Below are positions 1 to 6,229 of a DNA stretch of 6,229 nt, in pieces (position 1 is the stretch's first letter; each line of letters opens with the position of its first letter). The translations under genes and the position numbers were made by a program. The notes beneath the pieces were generated by a model. The model ran no database searches. It saw nothing but the letters and a program-made list of their open reading frames with translations, and was not told where the DNA came from. Origin of the DNA: a virus (Duplodnaviria > Heunggongvirae > Uroviricota > Caudoviricetes); IMG/VR virus record IMGVR_UViG_2534681999_000014, positions 1-6,229 of that record; one strand, given 5' to 3'.

Positions 1-142
1 ATTTTGTGATGCAGTGCCTGGTGCCTCCAGGTGACGTTAACCAGTTAACAATTAACGCCGGATACAGAGAATCCACCCATAACACTGTTTTTGGTTTTAA
101 CTGTTCCGCGTGCGCTTAGCCGCATTCACCGCATCACAAAAT
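1..142. repeat. Perfect 12-bp inverted repeat pair, ATTTTGTGATGC (1-12) and GCATCACAAAAT (131-142), flanking about 118 bp
   Basis: Seen directly: 131-142 is the exact reverse complement of 1-12. The left arm touches the window edge, so it may extend beyond the window. Function unknown. Confidence 0.5.
36..57. repeat. Three GTTAAC-core palindromic motifs at 8-bp spacing (GTTAAC 36-41, GTTAAC 44-49, TTAACG 53-57)
   Basis: Seen directly in ACGTTAACCAGTTAACAATTAACGCC. Regular spacing of a self-complementary hexamer suggests a protein-binding array; this is inference only. Confidence 0.35.
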
Positions 143-232
143 TCACTTTAAAAAGGGCGGCAGAGCAGTCACGGAGTAAAACTGATACCGCCAAATGTCA
201 CCAGAAAATTGATAACAGAGGGCGTTGTAGCG

Positions 233-269
233 GGGTTGTCACTTAAGCGTATGGTCAACCTGACAACCC
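233..269. other. Hairpin: 9-bp perfect inverted repeat GGGTTGTCA / TGACAACCC around a 19-nt loop that contains CTTAAG
   Basis: Seen directly: 233-241 and 261-269 are exact reverse complements. Followed by GGTGCATTTTCTGG, which is moderately T-rich. Could be a terminator of an upstream plus-strand gene or a regulatory structure; not resolved. Confidence 0.3.
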
Positions 270-461
270 GGTGCATTTTCTGGAGCAATGGAGGAAACCC
301 CAGCCATACTTACCGCCGCGCCATTTCGCGGACTGCCACAACCGGAAGCGCACGGTCGACGAAAATTTAACGATAGGCTATCTATGAACCAGCAACCTCG
401 CCGTGTGCTTTCGTGTTGTGTGCCTGCTTTTTACCACGTCAGGCGAGGTGGTCCCCGTTAT

Positions 462-507
462 TCCCCAACAACAAGGATCTTGTTAATCTGGATATCCCCA
501 ACAACAA
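462..507 (+). repeat. 13-bp direct repeat TCCCCAACAACAA x2 (462-474 and 495-507) upstream of the 546-1037 gene; a small palindrome AACAAG-gat-CTTGTT (470-484) with a GATC site lies between the copies
   Basis: Seen directly. Position about 40-85 bp upstream of the probable ATG at 546 suggests promoter or leader regulatory sites; inference. Confidence 0.35.
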
Positions 508-545
508 TAAGAGTATTGAATGTGATCGCTGAATTAACGGCAGCA

Positions 546-1037
546 ATGACGGCTATTCGTGAAACCGCCCAGATTGCAAAACTAATGAACGAGGCAAAAA
601 CTCAAGCTGAAGTAAATGCGGCTATTGGTGAACTGAACTCAAAGCTTGCATCTATTCAGCGCGAATGCGTGTCTCTCGTTGAGCTGGTGGGCACTTATCA
701 AGAAATAAATGCTTCTCTCAAAGCTAAAATTGCAGAATTTGAAAACTTTGAGGCTCAGACGGAAGGTTATATCCTTAGCCAACTTGAGTCGGGAACTTTT
801 GTGTACTCGAAGGAGGTAACCGTGAACGGCGGCAGCATAATCATGCATCTTTGTCCAAAATGTTTTGGACAAAAGATAGTATCGATACTTCAGCCATTCC
901 CGGTTAGAGAATATGAATTTTTTCATAAAAGCAGGTGCCTGTACTGTGAAGATCAGTTTCTTATGAATAAAAATCCGGATTACGTATCACCTCCATCTAT
1001 TGAAGAGTTGGCCAGAAAACTGAACGGCAATCTGTAG
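546..1037 (+). CDS. Hypothetical protein, 163 aa: N-terminal predicted coiled-coil, C-terminal CxxC-X24-CxxC zinc-ribbon-like motif; AT-rich cargo gene convergent with the leftward prophage genes
   Basis: Part of the 288-1037 ORF in the track. The first 86 codons (288-545) are R/P-rich, more GC-rich and not protein-like, so the start is placed at ATG 546 (MTAIRETAQIAKLMNEAK...). In-frame TTG 520 and GTG 526 are alternatives; the SD is weak in all cases. Cys motifs CPKC and CLYC seen in the translation. The body of the gene is visibly more AT-rich than neighbouring genes. No family recognised from memory. Confidence 0.5.
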   Translation: MTAIRETAQIAKLMNEAKTQAEVNAAIGELNSKLASIQRECVSLVELVGTYQEINASLKAKIAEFENFEAQTEGYILSQLESGTFVYSKEVTVNGGSIIMHLCPKCFGQKIVSILQPFPVREYEFFHKSRCLYCEDQFLMNKNPDYVSPPSIEELARKLNGNL

Positions 1038-1151
1038 ATTTTTACTGTTATGGATATCCAGATTGTTAAAGAGCATGCCGGATGCTTGCTTGTGTCCGGC
1101 GCGTGTGCACCACTCTCCCCCCGTGGAGGATTCCTTAATTACCAGATTTCA

Positions 1152-1304
1152 TTAGTCAGAGTTTCTTGCTAACCAGCGACGCGCGCCAGATTCGGTTTTA
1201 AACGTTTTGCTTTTGGTATACGTCATCGCGGTGAACGTGCCGTCCTGGTTGGGAAACACGCCGTACACCAGAGATTCGTTGTTGCCAAGATCGATAGTAT
1301 CCAT
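1152..1304 (-). CDS. Small prophage protein, 50 aa, DUF1391 family (YdaF/YdfA-like)
   Basis: The track ORF 1152-1343 begins with TTG; the internal ATG at 1304 is preceded by GAGG with a 6-nt spacer (GGGAAATGAGGTCAACATG on the minus strand), so the start is placed at 1304. Translation MDTIDLGNNESLVYGVFPNQDGTFTAMTYTKSKTFKTESGARRWLARNSD matches my memory of the small Rac/Qin prophage proteins YdaF/YdfA. Stop TAA at 1154-1152. Confidence 0.6.
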   Translation of the reverse strand: MDTIDLGNNESLVYGVFPNQDGTFTAMTYTKSKTFKTESGARRWLARNSD

Positions 1305-1490
1305 GTTGACCTCATTTCCCCTTAACGCCGGGTAGCGGAACAAAAACCTGCTGCATCGTTATTAAAGTTGAACCCTGCCGTCATGTTCATACGCCTCGGG
1401 CTGGCTACTTACCCCCTGACCACTGCTTGGTAACTCGAAGTATTGCCCGGCGTTCTGTGGGGCGGGGTGGGTGGTTGGTGTATGTAATCT

Positions 1491-1530
1491 ACAATAAAAA
1501 ACTGTTTTTGTGTCAACAGTTTTTAATTGT
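1491..1530. promoter_or_regulatory. OL-like operator: two 15-bp ACA-N9-TGT sites (ACAATAAAAAACTGT 1491-1505; ACAGTTTTTAATTGT 1516-1530) with a TTGACA -35-like hexamer on the minus strand in the spacer (plus coordinates 1511-1516)
   Basis: Seen directly: the first site is identical to the site at 2526-2540 and the second differs by 1 nt from 2550-2564. The location leftward of the repressor operon and upstream of the leftward DUF1391 gene matches the lambda OL/pL position. Confidence 0.6.
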
Positions 1531-1540
1531 TGTTTTGGGC

Positions 1541-1563
1541 AAAAAAATCCCTCGAAAGAGGGA
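1541..1563 (-). terminator. Rho-independent terminator for the minus-strand repressor-antitoxin-toxin operon
   Basis: Minus strand reads TCCCTC-TTTC-GAGGGA followed by TTTTTTT: a perfect 6-bp stem (1548-1553 / 1558-1563) with a 4-nt loop and a 7-U tract (1541-1547), starting 18 nt after the ParE stop codon (1584-1582). Confidence 0.55.
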
Positions 1564-1581
1564 GTATGAAAATTGTTCAAC

Positions 1582-1869
1582 TCAGATAGAGAAGGGAAAT
1601 TGTCGCCGAGAATGTGTCACGCTTACAATCTCAATGCTTGAAGCAGCTACTCTGTACAGGATTATGTAGTTAGGGTGGGTCACGATCTCTCTCAATCCAG
1701 AAACCCGTTCGCTTGGTGGATATAAGTACGGATGCTCAGATAGAGGTAATACCGATGTTTCAATGCGTATTTTTAGTCTACGTGCTGCCGGTGGGTTCTC
1801 CTTGGCGATGTAAGTTATGATCTGGCGCAAATCATCGCGAGCAGACGGTAGCCATAAAATGGGTAACAT
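1582..1869 (-). CDS. parE2: Type II toxin, ParE/RelE superfamily (ParE2-like)
   Basis: 95-aa ORF MLPILWLPSARDDLRQIITYIAKENPPAARRL...YIILYRVAASSIEIVSVTHSRRQ shows the ParE pattern (L.W.P.A..DL..I..YI...NP.AA; Y.I.YRV....IEI..V.H..R). Its ATG (1869-1867) overlaps the upstream antitoxin TAA (1871-1869) by 1 nt, the classic translationally coupled antitoxin-toxin order. The gene symbol is from memory of the E. coli O157 paaR2-paaA2-parE2 system and was not verified by search. Confidence 0.85.
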   Translation of the reverse strand: MLPILWLPSARDDLRQIITYIAKENPPAARRLKIRIETSVLPLSEHPYLYPPSERVSGLREIVTHPNYIILYRVAASSIEIVSVTHSRRQFPFSI

Positions 1870-2060
1870 TACTCGCTCTTGTTAGTTACAGCAATTTGAG
1901 CAATAAGATTTTCCATTTCAGCCATTACCTCGTCATGTGGAATTGCGGGGCGAGTGTCTGCAAGGCTTGACGTTACTTTAGTGCGCAACCATTCGTTGTA
2001 ACTGTTTTCTTGTTCGGTAGTTTCGAATTCTGAAACTATCGGAGAAAGGGCTGTACCCAT
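1869..2060 (-). CDS. paaA2: Antitoxin of the ParE toxin, 63 aa, PaaA2-like
   Basis: ORF MGTALSPIVSEFETTEQENSYNEWLRTKVTSSLADTRPAIPHDEVMAEMENLIAQIAVTNKSE lies immediately upstream of and overlaps the ParE gene. SD AGGAG sits 7 nt upstream of the ATG (2060-2058). Size and the motifs SPxVSEFET...ENSYNEWLR.KV..SLAD.RPAIPHDEV match what I recall of PaaA2; recalled, not searched. Confidence 0.75.
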   Translation of the reverse strand: MGTALSPIVSEFETTEQENSYNEWLRTKVTSSLADTRPAIPHDEVMAEMENLIAQIAVTNKSE

Positions 2061-2087
2061 GGCATAACTCCTCTTCTTGTACTGTGG

Positions 2088-2489
2088 TCACGCCCGGCGG
2101 CTTTTTTGTGCCGCCAGCCACCTAGCAATGGTTTCTTCCATTGATTTTTTCTTGTCTTTGATTTCTTGAAGCATTTTTTCTTGGTCTTCCTCAGGAAACG
2201 CACTAAAAGCTTGGAGCAGTTCGCGTTGGCGAGGACCAATTTTCATCGTGTCAGGGGTGAAAATTTGCTCACACTCTTCAGGAGGCAATAAAAACCAATG
2301 CAATGGATGCCCTGAAACCTCAACCAGTTTATCCAAACTTGAGGCTTTAGGTGTAGCCTTACCGCTGACCCATTGTTGAACAGTTTGTTGTGTCACACCA
2401 ATTCTACGGGCAAGCTCAGCCTGGCTCCATCCAGTTTCCTGAAGAAGCTTGCTGATTCTGTACATAGATACTTCTAGGGCGCTCATCAT
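2088..2489 (-). CDS. paaR2: HTH XRE-family transcriptional repressor: CI-like lysogeny repressor (RacR/DicA-like architecture) and probable third component (PaaR2-like) of the toxin-antitoxin operon
   Basis: 133-aa ORF with an N-terminal helix-turn-helix (SQAELARRIGVTQQTVQQWVSG) and a C-terminal region (ELLQAFSAFPEEDQEKMLQEIKDK) resembling the DicA-type C-terminus. Divergent from the Cro-like gene across a multi-site operator; 27 nt upstream of the antitoxin on the same strand. No SD upstream of ATG 2489, so the mRNA may be leaderless; an alternative start is M9 at 2465. Confidence 0.8.
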   Translation of the reverse strand: MMSALEVSMYRISKLLQETGWSQAELARRIGVTQQTVQQWVSGKATPKASSLDKLVEVSGHPLHWFLLPPEECEQIFTPDTMKIGPRQRELLQAFSAFPEEDQEKMLQEIKDKKKSMEETIARWLAAQKSRRA

Positions 2490-2500
2490 TATTCAATTTT

Positions 2501-2564
2501 ACAGGTAAATACTGTTAAAAGCATCACAATAAAAAACTGTTGATTGCATACAGTTTTTTATTGT
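2501..2564. promoter_or_regulatory. OR-like tripartite operator: 15-bp ACA-N9-TGT sites at 2501-2515 (ACAGGTAAATACTGT, weakest), 2526-2540 (ACAATAAAAAACTGT) and 2550-2564 (ACAGTTTTTTATTGT), centres 24-25 bp apart; divergent promoters embedded
   Basis: Seen directly: 2526-2540 and 2550-2564 are perfect reverse complements of each other. A -35-like TTGATT (2540-2545) lies in the spacer between them on the plus strand, and TATAGT (2575-2580) is a strong -10 candidate upstream of the ydaS-like SD GAGGAGG (2587-2593). On the minus strand, TAAAAT (plus 2496-2501) lies 6 nt from the repressor ATG. Confidence 0.65.
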
Positions 2565-2597
2565 AGGCTTTGCTTATAGTTTTTAGAGGAGGGCAAA

Positions 2598-2870
2598 ATG
2601 CTAGATAGCACTCGCGAAAAAATTAGGCAGAAATACACTCAGGCTGAAATAGGTCGTTATATGGGGGTCGCTCAACAGACTGTTTGGCAATGGTTTAGCT
2701 TTGGCGTTCCCCCAAAGCAGGTAATTCCGTTATGCCAACTAATGAAGTGGGAAGTTACCCCGCATGAAATCCGCCCAGATATTTATCCTAACCCAACCGA
2801 CGGTTTACCTGTTGGATGTAAGGTTAACACATCAAATGCGCCGGAGTTGATTCATGAAAATCAAGCATGA
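2598..2870 (+). CDS. ydaS: Cro-like small DNA-binding protein, YdaS family
   Basis: 90-aa ORF with strong SD GAGGAGG 4 nt upstream. HTH region AEIGRYMGVAQQTVWQWF followed by VIPLCQLMKWEVTPHEIRPDIYP resembles E. coli Rac YdaS as I recall it (…PAIERATRGEVLCEELRPDIDW). Divergent from the repressor. Confidence 0.75.
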   Translation: MLDSTREKIRQKYTQAEIGRYMGVAQQTVWQWFSFGVPPKQVIPLCQLMKWEVTPHEIRPDIYPNPTDGLPVGCKVNTSNAPELIHENQA

Positions 2871-3279
2871 ACACATCCGCATGGCGATGAATGCCTGGGC
2901 GCATCCGGACGGCGAAAAAGTACCGGCTGCGAAAATTACCAAAGCGTATTTCGAGCTGGGAATGACGTTCCCGGAACTGTATGACGACAGCCATCCGGAA
3001 GCCATGGCTCGCAATACTCAGAAAATTTTCCGCTGGGTGGAGAAAGACACTCCTGATGCGGTTAAAAAAATTCAGGCGTTGTTACCAGCGATCGAAAAAG
3101 CGATGCCGCCTCCGCTGGTGGCCCGAATGCGCAGCCACAGTTCCGCTTATTTTCGGGAGTTGGTAGAGACGAAGGAACGGCTGGTGAAAGATATTGATGA
3201 TTTCGTTGCATCAGCGATCGTTCTGTTCGATCAGATGAATCGTGGTGGCCCGGCAGGAAACACTCTGGCTGTGCATTAA
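2854..3279 (+). CDS. ydaT: YdaT-family protein (CII-like functional analog)
   Basis: 141-aa ORF starting MKIKHEHI and ending ...VH, with a central KIQALLPAI segment; these match the start, end and central motif of E. coli YdaT as I recall it. SD GGAG 7 nt upstream of the ATG. The start overlaps the ydaS-like 3' end by 17 nt. Confidence 0.75.
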   Translation: MKIKHEHIRMAMNAWAHPDGEKVPAAKITKAYFELGMTFPELYDDSHPEAMARNTQKIFRWVEKDTPDAVKKIQALLPAIEKAMPPPLVARMRSHSSAYFRELVETKERLVKDIDDFVASAIVLFDQMNRGGPAGNTLAVH

Positions 3280-3292
3280 TTGGGTAATAAAT

Positions 3293-3802
3293 ATGAGTAA
3301 TGACAAAAAATTGACACTGAGCGTTTACGAAAACAGTCCGCACATCTGGCGTGGCGGTTTATCTGATGTGGAGCTGGCAGAGTGGTTGATACATAAAGCT
3401 AATGCGCTGCTCTGGCGTTTGTCAGCCAGAGAACAGCGCAAGGAAACCAGAATAAAGCTGGCTGATGCAGAAGCGTGTGCCGGGCTTATTGAGGATTATA
3501 CAAATCTTGGTATTTCTTCAGCAGAGAGTGATCCCATTCAGCCTCTGAGCAGGGAGTCAATCCAGCACGCTGGTTGTATGGCACATCTTGTAACTGCTCG
3601 TCAACATGAGGTGGGTATTGGATCACTTCCGGCGGGATATTCGCTGATTCCAGAGCTGGTTGAAGCAAGAAAATCAGTTCAGAAAAAGAGAGATGACGCA
3701 CTTCAATTATTGAGAGAGCACTATGGCGCGATACCAGAATGCGAACAGCGTCGATACCCTGAAGGTTATGAATGGATGCAGTCTCTTTTTGAAGTTCGCT
3801 AA
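3293..3802 (+). CDS. Hypothetical protein, 169 aa, unknown function, inserted between the ydaT-like and replication genes
   Basis: Track ORF 3242-3802. The first ATG is at 3293 (MSNDKKLTLSVYENSPHIWRGG...), 14 nt after the ydaT-like stop; the region 3242-3292 overlaps the ydaT-like 3' end in another frame. Same orientation as the early-right operon. SD weak. No family recognised. Confidence 0.5.
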   Translation: MSNDKKLTLSVYENSPHIWRGGLSDVELAEWLIHKANALLWRLSAREQRKETRIKLADAEACAGLIEDYTNLGISSAESDPIQPLSRESIQHAGCMAHLVTARQHEVGIGSLPAGYSLIPELVEARKSVQKKRDDALQLLREHYGAIPECEQRRYPEGYEWMQSLFEVR

Positions 3803-4019
3803 TCAATATGTCGAGACGAAGGTATGTTTCGGCGCGCAGCCAGGCTCTGTAATCCGGGAGCATTTCGGGGCTGTTACACCAGCGGTTTGTTGCTGCAACA
3901 TTTAATACATGAGCCTGATAAAGGCTTTTCAAAAAATACATGTCGAACCTCCTCTGGTTCTGTCGATTGGGAACCACAGATTATATCCGGAGGAAGGTTC
4001 GGCACCAGATGAGGTAGCC

Positions 4020-5111
4020 ATGCGTGATTACGCAAAAGTTTCTCCGCGATTCTGGCTGGGAGAAACGGGGAGAGAACTTAGAAAGGCGGGTGCAGAAGCG
4101 CAAGTTGTTGCTTTTTACCTGATGACATCCCCTCACGCAAATATGCTGGGTTTGTATTACCTGCCAGTTTTATACCTTGCTCATGAAACCGGGCTTGGTC
4201 TGGAAGGGGCTTCAAAGGGGCTTAAAAGGGCTGTTGAAGCTGGTTTTTGTAGCTATGACCATGATGCAGAGATGGTCTGGGTCCATGAAATGGCAGCCTG
4301 GCAGGTTGGGGAAACGTTGAAGCCTGGCGATAACCGTTGTGCAGGTGTCAGGAATGAGTATGCATCATTACCTGAAAACGCTTTTCTGTCAGTGTTTTAC
4401 GACAGATATAAAACGGATTTCCATCTGGATGTGAGGCGGAATAATAGCCGAAATTCGGTAAGGGGCTTCGAAGGGGCTTTTAAGGGGCTTCGAAGCCAAG
4501 AACAGGAACAGGAGCAGGAGAAAGAACAGGAACAGGACAAAAACACTATGGTTCATGGCAAAAAAAACACCACGAACCAGGCAGGGGATGTTCAGACCGT
4601 CAATCCTGGTCAGCCAGCAGGCACGACACCGGAAGCCGATTCGGGCGCTGTGCAGCAGGTGATGACCGCAGGGTCGGAGCAATCACACCAACTGCAGCAG
4701 CCTGAAGCCGATTCCGCCATTCAGCGGGAAGCCGATCGGGTAGTCCCGGAAAGCACCGGGCAGTCTGTGGGACGAGTGGATTATCCGGATGTGTTCGAAC
4801 AGGTCTGGCGGGAATACCCGTTGCGTGCTGGGGCAAACCCGAAGAAATCCGCTTTCAGTGCCTGGAAGGCCAGATTGCGCGAGGGGGTGCCACCAGAGAC
4901 CATGCTGGATGGTGTGAGGCGTTACGCGAGATACCTGGCGGCGACCGGGAAAGCGGGAACGGAATTTGTTCAGCGAGCGACGACGTTTTTTGGGCCGGAC
5001 CGGAATTTTGAAAACCCCTGGTTGCTCCCGGTAAGCGGCACGAACAACCAGCGTTGTGTGAATCATATTTCTGAACCGGATACCGAAATTCCGCCGGGAT
5101 TCAGGGGGTGA
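4020..5111 (+). CDS. Phage replication initiation protein (lambda O-like / YdaU-position), with an internal Gln/Glu-rich linker and a conserved phage C-terminal domain
   Basis: Track ORF 3909-5111. The ATG at 4020 has SD GAGG 5 nt upstream, while ATG 3909 has none, so the start is placed at 4020 (MRDYAKVSPRFWLGETGRELRKAG...). The C-terminal segment DVFEQVWREYPLRAGANPKKSAFSAWKARL...ATTFFGPDRNFENPW resembles the conserved C-terminal domain of phage replication proteins (from memory). Position immediately upstream of the DnaC-like gene. Contains DNA iterons (see repeat features). Confidence 0.7.
   Translation: MRDYAKVSPRFWLGETGRELRKAGAEAQVVAFYLMTSPHANMLGLYYLPVLYLAHETGLGLEGASKGLKRAVEAGFCSYDHDAEMVWVHEMAAWQVGETLKPGDNRCAGVRNEYASLPENAFLSVFYDRYKTDFHLDVRRNNSRNSVRGFEGAFKGLRSQEQEQEQEKEQEQDKNTMVHGKKNTTNQAGDVQTVNPGQPAGTTPEADSGAVQQVMTAGSEQSHQLQQPEADSAIQREADRVVPESTGQSVGRVDYPDVFEQVWREYPLRAGANPKKSAFSAWKARLREGVPPETMLDGVRRYARYLAATGKAGTEFVQRATTFFGPDRNFENPWLLPVSGTNNQRCVNHISEPDTEIPPGFRG
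4204..4233. repeat. Iteron cluster A: AAGGGGCTT at 4204-4212 and 4215-4223 plus a degenerate copy (AAAGGGCTG, 4225-4233), 11-bp period
   Basis: Seen directly in GAAGGGGCTTCAAAGGGGCTTAAAAGGGCTG. Copies are read in three different reading frames (EGA / KGL / KRA), arguing for DNA-level rather than protein-level selection. Confidence 0.45.
4460..4490. repeat. Iteron cluster B: three perfect AAGGGGCTT copies at 4460-4468, 4471-4479 and 4482-4490 (exact 11-bp period), with palindromic CTTCGAAG cores; candidate replication origin inside the initiator gene
   Basis: Seen directly in TAAGGGGCTTCGAAGGGGCTTTTAAGGGGCTTCGAAGCC. The three copies are translated in three frames (RGF / EGA / KGL). Immediately followed by the linker-coding repeat and an A-rich stretch (4539-4570). 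Lambda ori is likewise a set of iterons inside the O gene. Confidence 0.5.
4500..4541 (+). repeat. In-frame hexamer array (GARCAG)n encoding the QEQEQEQEKEQEQD low-complexity linker
   Basis: Seen directly: GAACAG x2, GAGCAG, GAGAAA, GAACAG x2, GACAAA. The period is a multiple of 3 and is read in one frame, so this is a protein-level flexible acidic linker between the N- and C-terminal domains. Confidence 0.6.
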
Positions 5112-5117
5112 TGTGGC

Positions 5118-5864
5118 ATGAAAAACATTGCGGCAGCCGGGGTTCTTGAACGTATTCGCAGACTTGCACCACAGGCGTCGGTTCCACCGTACCGGACGGT
5201 GGAGGAGTGGCGGGAATGGCAACTTGCTGAAGGACGAAAACGCAGCGAGGAGATTAACCGCCAGAATCACCAGTTGCGGGTGGAAAAAATCCTGAATCGT
5301 TCGGGCATCCAGCCTCTGCACAGCAAATGCTCGTTTGCGAATTATCAGGTGCAGAACGACGGGCAAAAATACGCGCTGAGCCAGGCCAAATCCATAGCTG
5401 ACGAACTGATGACCGGGTGCACGAATTTTGTGTTCAGCGGTAAAACCGGCACCGGGAAAAATCACCTTGCAGCGGCGATGGGTAACCGGCTGATGGCGAA
5501 GGGGCGCAGCGTGATTATCGTCACCGTGTCTGATGTCATGAGCGTGTTGCATGACAGCTACGACAACGGCAAATCCGGGGAAAAATTTTTACAGGAGCTT
5601 TGCAGTGTTGATTTGCTGGTCCTGGATGAAATAGGCGTTCAGCGGGAGACGAAAAACGAGCAGGTGGTATTACACCAGATAATTGATCGCCGGACAGCAT
5701 CACTGTGCAGTGTCGGGATGTTAACAAACCTGAATCATGCCGCAATGAGTACACTTCTTGGTGAGAGGATTATGGACCGCATGACCATGAACGGTGGTCG
5801 ATGGGTGACGTTTAACTGGGATAGCTGGCGTCCAAATGTCAGCAATATGAGGGTTGTGAAGTAA
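5118..5864 (+). CDS. DnaC-like helicase loader, AAA+ ATPase of the DnaC/IstB family (lambda P functional analog, YdaV-position)
   Basis: 248-aa ORF with Walker A FSGKTGTGKNHLAAAMG and Walker B DLLVLDEIG. Start ATG 5118 follows the initiator stop (5109-5111) by 6 nt, with a G-rich SD (5103-5108). Confidence 0.9.
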   Translation: MKNIAAAGVLERIRRLAPQASVPPYRTVEEWREWQLAEGRKRSEEINRQNHQLRVEKILNRSGIQPLHSKCSFANYQVQNDGQKYALSQAKSIADELMTGCTNFVFSGKTGTGKNHLAAAMGNRLMAKGRSVIIVTVSDVMSVLHDSYDNGKSGEKFLQELCSVDLLVLDEIGVQRETKNEQVVLHQIIDRRTASLCSVGMLTNLNHAAMSTLLGERIMDRMTMNGGRWVTFNWDSWRPNVSNMRVVK

Positions 5865-5885
5865 TTTTGTCCGGAGGAAATTTTA

Positions 5886-6229
5886 ATGGAAACCGTATCT
5901 GACGCACTGAAAGCACTGAAAAAAGCCTCTTCACATGTGGTGGCAGCTCGCCTTGGAATCAGTCGTGAAGAGGCTGTCAACGAGCTGTGGGAACTCAAAA
6001 TAAATGGCGTCGTTGATAAAACTGGTCACACCTGGTTTCTGGCTGGCGAAGGTGAATCCCGGGTAACCGAAGAGCGGCCAGTAAAATCTGAAGCACAGGA
6101 TATGCTGACCGGGGAGGTCGAACAAAAAGTTACCGCAGACATGATGATTGAGTTTATCGGTCAGGATGGGGCTAAAACGTGTGAGGAACTGGCGGGTAAG
6201 TTCGGTGTCAGTACTCGCAAGGTTGCTTC
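5886..6229 (+). CDS. Partial CDS (5' end, runs off the window): hypothetical prophage protein with an N-terminal winged-helix-like segment, possibly YdaW/DUF1627-like
   Basis: Not in the supplied track because it has no stop inside the window. I translated it by hand from ATG 5886 (METVSDALKALKKASSHVVAARLGISREEAVNELWELKINGVVDKTGHTWFLAGEGE...) and found no stop codon through 6229. SD GGAGG (5873-5877) 8 nt upstream. Family assignment is a weak recollection. Confidence 0.6.
   Translation, partial: METVSDALKALKKASSHVVAARLGISREEAVNELWELKINGVVDKTGHTWFLAGEGESRVTEERPVKSEAQDMLTGEVEQKVTADMMIEFIGQDGAKTCEELAGKFGVSTRKVA

Follow-up and report, generated by a model that had tools for sequence, protein, structure and literature searches.

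The stretch of DNA analyzed here (the window) comprises positions 1 to 6,229 of the IMG/VR virus record IMGVR_UViG_2534681999_000014, i.e., 6,229 nucleotides (nt) from the early region of a Rac/lambdoid-type Escherichia coli prophage. Toward its left end, an open reading frame (ORF) on the + strand lies between two features of the − strand, the small RNA DicF (155-206) and a DUF1391/ydfA gene (1152-1343). Its orientation against the leftward early genes is as described in the sequence-only reading of this DNA, an annotation made by a model from the letters without database searches. We refer to this ORF as the rip1-like gene, after the phage-defense protein Rip1 with which its product is compared below. 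The gene and its product are made up as follows, with residues in the 171-amino-acid (aa) numbering and structure taken from an AlphaFold2 (AF2) model and its predicted local distance difference test (pLDDT) score:

522..1037, + strand: rip1-like coding sequence, GTG start, 171 aa plus stop, resting on the ORF, the call of the Prokaryotic Genome Annotation Pipeline (PGAP), N-terminal conservation, the ratio of nonsynonymous to synonymous substitution rates (dN/dS), and matches to phrog_1244 and PDB entry 9oox
509..513, + strand: Shine-Dalgarno-like AAGAG, 8 nt 5' of GTG 522, read from the sequence, with its GAG kept in the leader alignment
525..758, + strand: N-terminal helical half (AF2 helices 2-24 and 28-79; hydrophobic heptad a/d pattern in the latter)
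771..971, + strand: C-terminal beta-rich domain, residues 84-150, with a Cys4 and "SILQ" signature, AF2 pLDDT >90, aligned to the modeled part of the 9oox chains
852..863, + strand: first CxxC, Cys111/Cys114, aligned with CAQC of HK446 Rip1
936..947, + strand: second CxxC, Cys139/Cys142, aligned with CHRC of HK446 Rip1

The frame is open without interruption to a TAG stop (1035-1037), and over 522..1037 its product is identical to RefSeq WP_001509524.1, which PGAP calls at 522-1037 and labels "hypothetical protein." This is a real, conserved gene under purifying selection: compared with homologues from a further E. coli prophage, from Citrobacter, and from Plesiomonas, it gives dN/dS values of 0.16, 0.19, and 0.24. 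An alternative, that the ORF is non-functional or due to chance within an AT-rich spacer, might be argued for from the failure of consensus scans to find a promoter or terminator, and from a 95-aa ORF on the opposite strand (639-926). Set against it are those same dN/dS values (0.16-0.24), full-length homologues across Enterobacterales, Pseudomonas phages, and Rhodobacter phages, and a confident structure prediction; because of the purifying selection and conservation we exclude it, its likelihood being negligible. The antisense ORF itself is absent from the RefSeq annotation and is probably spurious.

Translation most likely begins at GTG 522 rather than at ATG 546, the start taken in the sequence-only reading, from which a protein of 163 aa would result; the alternative start at 520 that it had also offered is an ATG with a TGA immediately after it. 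We prefer GTG 522 because the eight additional N-terminal residues (IAELTAAM) are kept in homologues down to ~45% identity (there MIAELSAAM...), because the Met of ATG 546 (Met9) is not conserved (i.e., it is replaced by I or L in some homologues, P0010 and P0037), because GTG is the start in all four loci compared, and because the AAGAG spacing and the PGAP call agree with it. A dual start of the SieB/Esc kind (GTG 522 / ATG 546) was considered and dropped, since Met9 is not conserved.

Kinship with Rip1

In the 163-aa numbering, cysteines fall at 103, 106, 131, and 134, and the CPKC-X24-CLYC motif read earlier from the sequence is therefore present as claimed. The heptad-patterned N-terminal helix noted with it is also borne out: over residues 28-79 (171-aa numbering), I/L/V/M/F/Y/C occupy 12 of the 15 a/d positions in one register, and 0-3 in unrelated registers. 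A transmembrane segment is absent, again as had been stated (highest Kyte-Doolittle 19-residue mean 1.13). The AF2 model (pLDDT 88.6) shows helices at 2-24 and 28-79, followed by the beta-rich domain at 84-150.

The sequence-only reading had called the protein unrecognized and uncharacterized, and had proposed profile and structure-based searches as the check. Both kinds of search were run and both gave the Rip1 of PDB entry 9oox, a defense protein published in 2026, such that by sequence and by predicted fold the protein is a clear Rip1-family homologue. The entry (released 2026-02-04) is titled [quoted passage not shown] and its Rip1 chain is identical to HK446 gp37 (HK446_037). Specifically, a single-sequence phmmer search of the PDB hit 9oox_L, named there "ring interacting pore 1 (Rip1)" (E 7e-7), in an alignment that pairs both CxxC motifs, and a profile of 16 homologues matched it at E 8e-16, with profile positions 7-151 lying on chain residues 17-160 of 164. 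Foldseek aligned the AF2 model to 9oox_M/L at E 4.8e-7, with probability 1.00 and a target-normalized template-modeling (TM) score of 0.73 (root-mean-square deviation 3.5 Å over 120 columns); this was the sole significant fold match in the PDB, the next standing at E 0.06. A fold search of viral structures in BFVD gave nothing significant, and scans of the protein with Pfam, NCBIfam, and PADLOC gave only coiled-coil noise below threshold.

The wider family is consistent with this placement. In PHROGs, the protein matches phrog_1244 ("unknown function") at E 1.4e-55, a family that HK446 Rip1, HK620 HkaP, and JBD30 gp30 also match (E 1e-51 to 1e-61), and BLASTP alignments to these three are all colinear: 27% identity to HK446 Rip1 (E 5e-13), 30% to JBD30 gp30 (1e-19), and 31% to HkaP (1e-20). 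At four positions (C111, C114, L123, and C139) no variation is seen among 54 diverse representatives or in HK446, HkaP, and JBD30, with Cys111 and Cys114 invariant in 37 close members as well as in the 54 distant ones; C142, Q124, Y83, G91, Y95, and L66 are at least 90% conserved among the 54. The resulting hallmark, hLCPxC...KSILQ...CxxC, is a Cys4/SILQ signature that we derived from alignments including the solved member. The family is large (clustered at 50% identity, it has 2222 representatives with E ≤1e-3 and 556 with E ≤1e-10), with members almost all of 145-175 aa and full-length homologues across Enterobacterales, Pseudomonas phages, and Rhodobacter phages. The Rip1 architecture, a small single gene of ~160 aa with a helical N-terminal part and a C-terminal ring-binding domain, is matched by the 171 aa, the N-terminal helices, and the beta-rich C-terminal domain here, and no partner gene is co-conserved across contexts. 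All of the homologue contexts examined are prophage, as is the gene's own locus in a lambdoid/Rac-type early region.

A DksA/TraR-like regulator, i.e., a coiled coil plus a C4 zinc finger binding RNA polymerase, had been floated in the sequence-only reading, and a long helical N-terminus followed by four Cys does give the protein a superficial likeness to one. That idea did not survive the searches: Pfam gave no match to zf-dskA_traR (PF01258) or any other regulator at E ≤0.1, neither DksA nor TraR is among the PDB fold matches, and the Cys pairs sit in a ~65-residue beta-rich domain with spacings of X19-X29 in relatives and X24 here, as against X17. We regard it as extremely improbable.

For the family's mode of action, section 5 of the review PMC13434031 describes Rip1 as a prophage protein that is non-toxic alone, with homologues common in proteobacterial prophages, and with escaper mutations in the portal for phages of Pseudomonas and in the small terminase for those of E. 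coli. In that section's account, 12 Rip1 protomers assemble round an 11-mer small terminase ring, the N-terminal part being an amphipathic helix and the C-terminal half touching the terminase ring; the complex, which has a pore, lets dye out of liposomes and perforates cells, so that an infected cell dies before the phage matures (PMC13434031).

By homology, we infer the same mechanism for the protein of the window. In the lysogen, it would be made from a promoter of the sieB type (P_sieB, described below) and would be harmless alone. Once an infecting phage reached late gene expression, its ring proteins (the small terminase 11-mer or the portal) would be bound by the C-terminal domain, which is presumed to be the part that recognizes such rings. 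The phage ring would then template ~12 protomers into an outer ring with the N-terminal helices forming an inner-membrane pore, and the cell would die or lyse ahead of progeny maturation. The N-terminal helical half is accordingly presumed to be a pore or oligomerization module, a role carried over from the description of Rip1 in the same section of PMC13434031.

Altogether, we judge it probable that the gene is a Rip1-family ("ring interacting pore") single-protein anti-phage defense that an E. coli prophage of the Rac/lambdoid type carries as cargo in its sieB slot, and the class guessed at earlier (exclusion or abortive infection) fits. Membership in the Rip1 family is well supported; the defense activity and the trigger we infer for this subfamily from studied members to which it is 27-31% identical. 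What is new here is a previously unlabeled E. coli member of a Rip1 subfamily, the Rip1 mechanism and structure having already been published in 2026.

Several points weigh against this assignment. Identity to the studied members is only 27-31%, and therefore trigger specificity, and even activity, could differ in this subfamily. The mechanism of the family is itself taken from section 5 of the review (summarizing Patel et al., Nature 651:1060, 2026) and from the PDB title. Approximately 38 residues of Rip1 are absent from the 9oox model (124-126 of 164 residues are modeled), and the pore-forming part is for this reason not comparable with it. The helical hydrophobic moment of the N-terminal helices lies at z 0.5-1.7 relative to shuffles, i.e., amphipathicity is not statistically shown; the extreme N-terminus is less Gly/Ala-hydrophobic than that of HK446 Rip1; and a C-terminal tail of 20 residues (PDYVSPPSIEELARKLNGNL) is restricted to the rip1-like subfamily. 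PADLOC gave no match, its models being of 2023 and predating Rip1. A consensus promoter scan around the gene found none, a negative that says little because the annotated P22 sieB promoter was likewise missed, and a consensus scan found no intrinsic terminator after the gene, the hairpins of the 3' flank having no U-tract (z -1.45).

Some room is left for a Rip1 fold with a diverged role, e.g., one directed at another oligomeric phage or host target, a poreless exclusion, or control of the prophage's own lysis timing or packaging. For it speak the 27-31% identity to characterized members, the subfamily-specific tail and different N-terminus, the great size and diversity of the family (2222 cluster representatives at E ≤1e-3), and the portal and small terminase triggers that already differ within the family in the account of PMC13434031. 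Against it, the architecture and the invariant residues are kept over the full length, the gene agrees with HK446 rip1 in slot, leader, and orientation, and the sieB slot is a classical exclusion locus. We consider a diverged role unlikely and retain the Rip1-type defense as the reading of this gene.

The leader and its cargo

The position had been read as equivalent to that of sieB, opposite pL, and the leader (the 110 nt 5' of the gene) bears this out. More conserved than the protein itself, it is homologous to lambda 34396-34481, directly upstream of sieB, and to P22 BK000583 29652-29736, a record in which the sieB promoter (29690-29720) and the start of the sieB RNA (29727) are marked. HK446 rip1 and HK620 hkaP likewise lie on the strand opposite pL, between the N and cIII/kil genes, and in Citrobacter and Plesiomonas the homologue has excisionase or cIII on one side and an S24-type repressor on the other. 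The elements of the leader are:

422..452, no strand assigned: conserved ~31-nt element GCCTG(N)CTTTTnACCACnTCAGGCnnGGTGGT, 5' of the promoter and common to lambda, P22, HK446, HK620, and many prophages
456..496, + strand: predicted P_sieB-type promoter, placed by alignment to P22 BK000583, with window positions inferred
~456-462, + strand: weak −35-like region, transferred from P22
481-489, + strand: extended −10, TGnTAATCT, transferred from P22
~495/496, + strand: predicted RNA start, transferred from P22, giving a 5' untranslated region of ~27 nt
464-475 and 496-507, + strand: two direct repeats CCCCAACAACAA (CCCCTACAG in P22, lambda, and HK446), in conserved alignment columns
Copies of the leader: window 422-521; locus L004, 4790-4890; locus L133, 1201-1306; IMG/VR loci L013-L132

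The first repeat overlaps the −35 side of the promoter and the second begins at the predicted RNA 5' end; the 31-nt element stands upstream of the RNA start mapped in P22. Neither leader nor gene matched a known RNA family when Rfam was searched at a permissive threshold.

With slot and promoter/leader as in lambda and P22 sieB, a SieB-type membrane exclusion protein, replacing its like within the same family, could be argued for. Yet the protein has no transmembrane segment (maximum 1.13, as above) and no PF14163 match at E ≤0.1, whereas genes following this leader that do encode SieB hit PF14163 at E 3e-25 and 6e-30. The sequence-only reading was thus right that this is not a SieB-type membrane protein. 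A place in the SieB family is refuted—the overall possibility is very slight—and the function would be analogous only broadly, as abortive exclusion.

In P22, the antisense RNA sas is said, from work of Ranade and Poteete in 1993, to be derived from the pL transcript. A passage of PMC5415839 has sas controlling P22 sieB, in that it "regulates alternative translation." Leftward early transcription here runs antisense across the cassette and its leader, and a sas-like shut-off during the prophage's own lytic growth is therefore plausible. Such antisense silencing of the rip1-like gene is a more speculative part of our proposal.

The leader reaches well beyond this gene. The ~31-nt element, searched with the pattern GCCTG(N)CTTTTnnCCnCnTCAGGC, occurs at no fewer than 120 IMG/VR loci, and a Rip1-family gene lies downstream of the element in only ~20-25 of 131 loci; the first downstream ORF falls into at least 35 unrelated clusters, in lambdoid prophages. 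Among this cargo are SieB (PF14163; two clusters, E 3e-25 and 6e-30), the ECs1072 family (12 loci), an ECs_2282-type CxxC zinc-binding protein, small membrane proteins, and many unknowns. A further coiled-coil plus Cys4 cargo, at locus L069, was tried as a Rip1 relative and set aside as not confident (hhalign probability 18%). Of 5426 E. coli genomes, 2767 contain the leader, at 4374 places in all and up to six per genome, and it is without annotation in E. coli RefSeq records.

Two forms can be told apart. The long form (sieB, rip1) has, after the element, two CCCC(A/T)ACA repeats on either side of the mapped promoter; in the short form, the element runs straight into TGGTATnCT, an extended −10-like sequence ~25 nt before the start codon. 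Short-form leaders (locus L116, 4498-4527) have an ACCAC...GTGGT hairpin followed by ATCCTTTTAA, flagged as terminator-like on the + strand, and the 3' arm of the next hairpin carries the Shine-Dalgarno sequence; these hairpins may act as an attenuator or in translational control.

By our own reading, the 31-nt element resembles boxA in part. It could also fold into two hairpins that exclude each other, or into a pseudoknot whose stems would be GCCTG/CAGGC and ACCAC/GTGGT. The first stem is fixed by the search pattern itself; for the second, one lineage shows a compensatory change (ACCGC/GCGGT), and the common GCCAC/GTGGA breaks the fifth pair.

Taken further, these observations would allow a larger "P_sieB cassette" system, in which the leader would drive at least 35 cargo families, mostly single-gene defenses, all of them active in the lysogen and shut off in cis, in the manner of sas RNA, by antisense transcription from pL once the prophage itself turns lytic, the Rip1 subfamily having a trigger of its own. 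We advance this system tentatively, and think it rather doubtful as it stands. The P_sieB leader with its many unknown cargo genes is nonetheless the more open lead.

Exchange, prevalence, and neighboring genes

Leader and gene move together as one exchangeable cassette:

414..1074, + strand: exchangeable cassette (leader plus gene), delimited by blastn against a CPS-53-like prophage (locus L003), 93.5%

That prophage, located at tRNA-Thr and otherwise unrelated, has only 414-1074 in common with the window, and in a prophage of strain 2013C-3277 (locus L001) positions 432-1158 are replaced by three other small genes. The gene had been described as horizontally exchanged cargo, and these two swapped segments agree with it; variability of the slot, proposed earlier as a check, is seen in the other genes that occupy it on the same backbone and in the cargo families (at least 35) behind the same leader. 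The AT-richness offered as a sign of acquisition holds only in part. The gene has 41.7% GC (39% at third codon positions), below its left flank (48.8%), its right flank (46.1%), and the window as a whole (48.3%), but the effect is modest, the repressor, cro, and toxin-antitoxin genes being almost as low at 43-46%.

The window itself is a recombinant of two prophage types. Positions 1-1472 are 98.4% identical to an O157:H7 prophage (potC-site, RacR immunity) and positions 1159-6229 are 99.7% identical to the prophage of strain 2013C-3277, and the best cover of the window at a single place in complete E. coli genomes is at most 88%. Of 5426 complete E. coli genomes, 682 carry the rip1-like gene, O157:H7 among them. 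Its surroundings in the window are:

155-206, − strand: DicF small RNA (full-length match to Rfam RF00039, 77 bits), just upstream of off-window dicB
1152-1343, − strand: DUF1391/ydfA gene
1582-2060, − strand: ParE/PaaA2 toxin-antitoxin pair
2088-2489, − strand: CI-type helix-turn-helix repressor
Right of the repressor, + strand: YdaS/Cro-like and YdaT genes
Right of YdaT: O-like and DnaC-like replication genes

From the position of DicF it follows that the Rip1-like cassette is inserted between DicF and ydfA in the leftward operon. The pair of ParE toxin and PaaA2 antitoxin follows directly downstream of the CI-type repressor and shares its strand, a position that suggests expression in the lysogen, like that of rexAB in lambda. 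Farther right, two long antiparallel ORFs overlap at 3242-3977: the + strand ORF (3290-3799) matches phrog_8304 at E 4e-120, and the − strand ORF (3486-3977), the one of the two that PGAP annotates, hits the NCBIfam model NF033230 ("ECs1072 family") with E 2.7e-30.

For E. coli genomics, the assignment would give a mechanistic label to a "hypothetical protein" found in ~1/8 of complete genomes, including O157:H7 lineages, and so far without a covering model in Pfam, NCBIfam, or PADLOC. It predicts which phages would be resisted, namely those with a recognized small terminase or portal ring, and has a bearing on phage therapy and on competition among prophages in enterohaemorrhagic E. coli. The sieB slot together with the conserved leader offers a cheap search handle for more prophage-borne defense candidates.

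Comparison with known systems

Among the closest known systems is HK446 Rip1, with which the protein of the window shares phrog_1244, a colinear profile match (E 8e-16), the predicted fold (TM score 0.73), a similar length (164 aa in HK446, 171 aa here), both CxxC pairs, the SILQ motif, and a homologous leader. The two genes also sit in the same slot, with the N/repressor side on one flank and the cIII/kil side on the other, and both are on the opposite strand to pL. They differ in sequence (27% identity) and at both ends: HK446 Rip1 has an ATG start and an N-terminus 10 residues longer and Gly/Ala-rich, whereas the protein of the window has a GTG start and an extra C-terminal tail of 20 residues. 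The trigger of HK446 Rip1 is the T6 small terminase.

Rip1 of Pseudomonas aeruginosa prophages is represented here by JBD30 gp30, DMS3, and D3112 orf25. JBD30 gp30 is alike in sequence (30% identity over 153 residues, E 1e-19; phrog_1244) and in being a single small temperate-phage gene on the strand opposite to its neighbors. It differs in belonging to Mu-like phages (Casadabanvirus), where it lies outside the lambdoid sieB slot, in another promoter context, between a DUF1804/helix-turn-helix (small-terminase-like) protein and a phrog_38 large terminase. This position agrees with the Pseudomonas Rip1 locus given in section 5 of the review, between the small and large terminase genes, for which the escapers described there map to the portal (PMC13434031); JBD30 gp30 may be the exact Pseudomonas protein studied.

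HK620 HkaP (also in HK629, HK630, and an Stx1a phage) is of another subfamily, with 31% identity (E 1e-20) and the same slot and leader; its old label, "putative superinfection exclusion protein," was given from position, and a literature search on HkaP returned nothing relevant and no functional data. SieB (lambda, P22, and Rac; PF14163) shares with the rip1-like gene the slot, the promoter/leader module, transcription against pL, and the character of a prophage-expressed exclusion, and yet is an unrelated protein, i.e., a membrane protein with transmembrane segments matching PF14163, where the protein of the window has neither. DksA/TraR, finally, resembles it in a helical N-terminus followed by four cysteines and differs in Cys spacing and in giving no sequence or fold match, the Cys domain of the window's protein being beta-rich.

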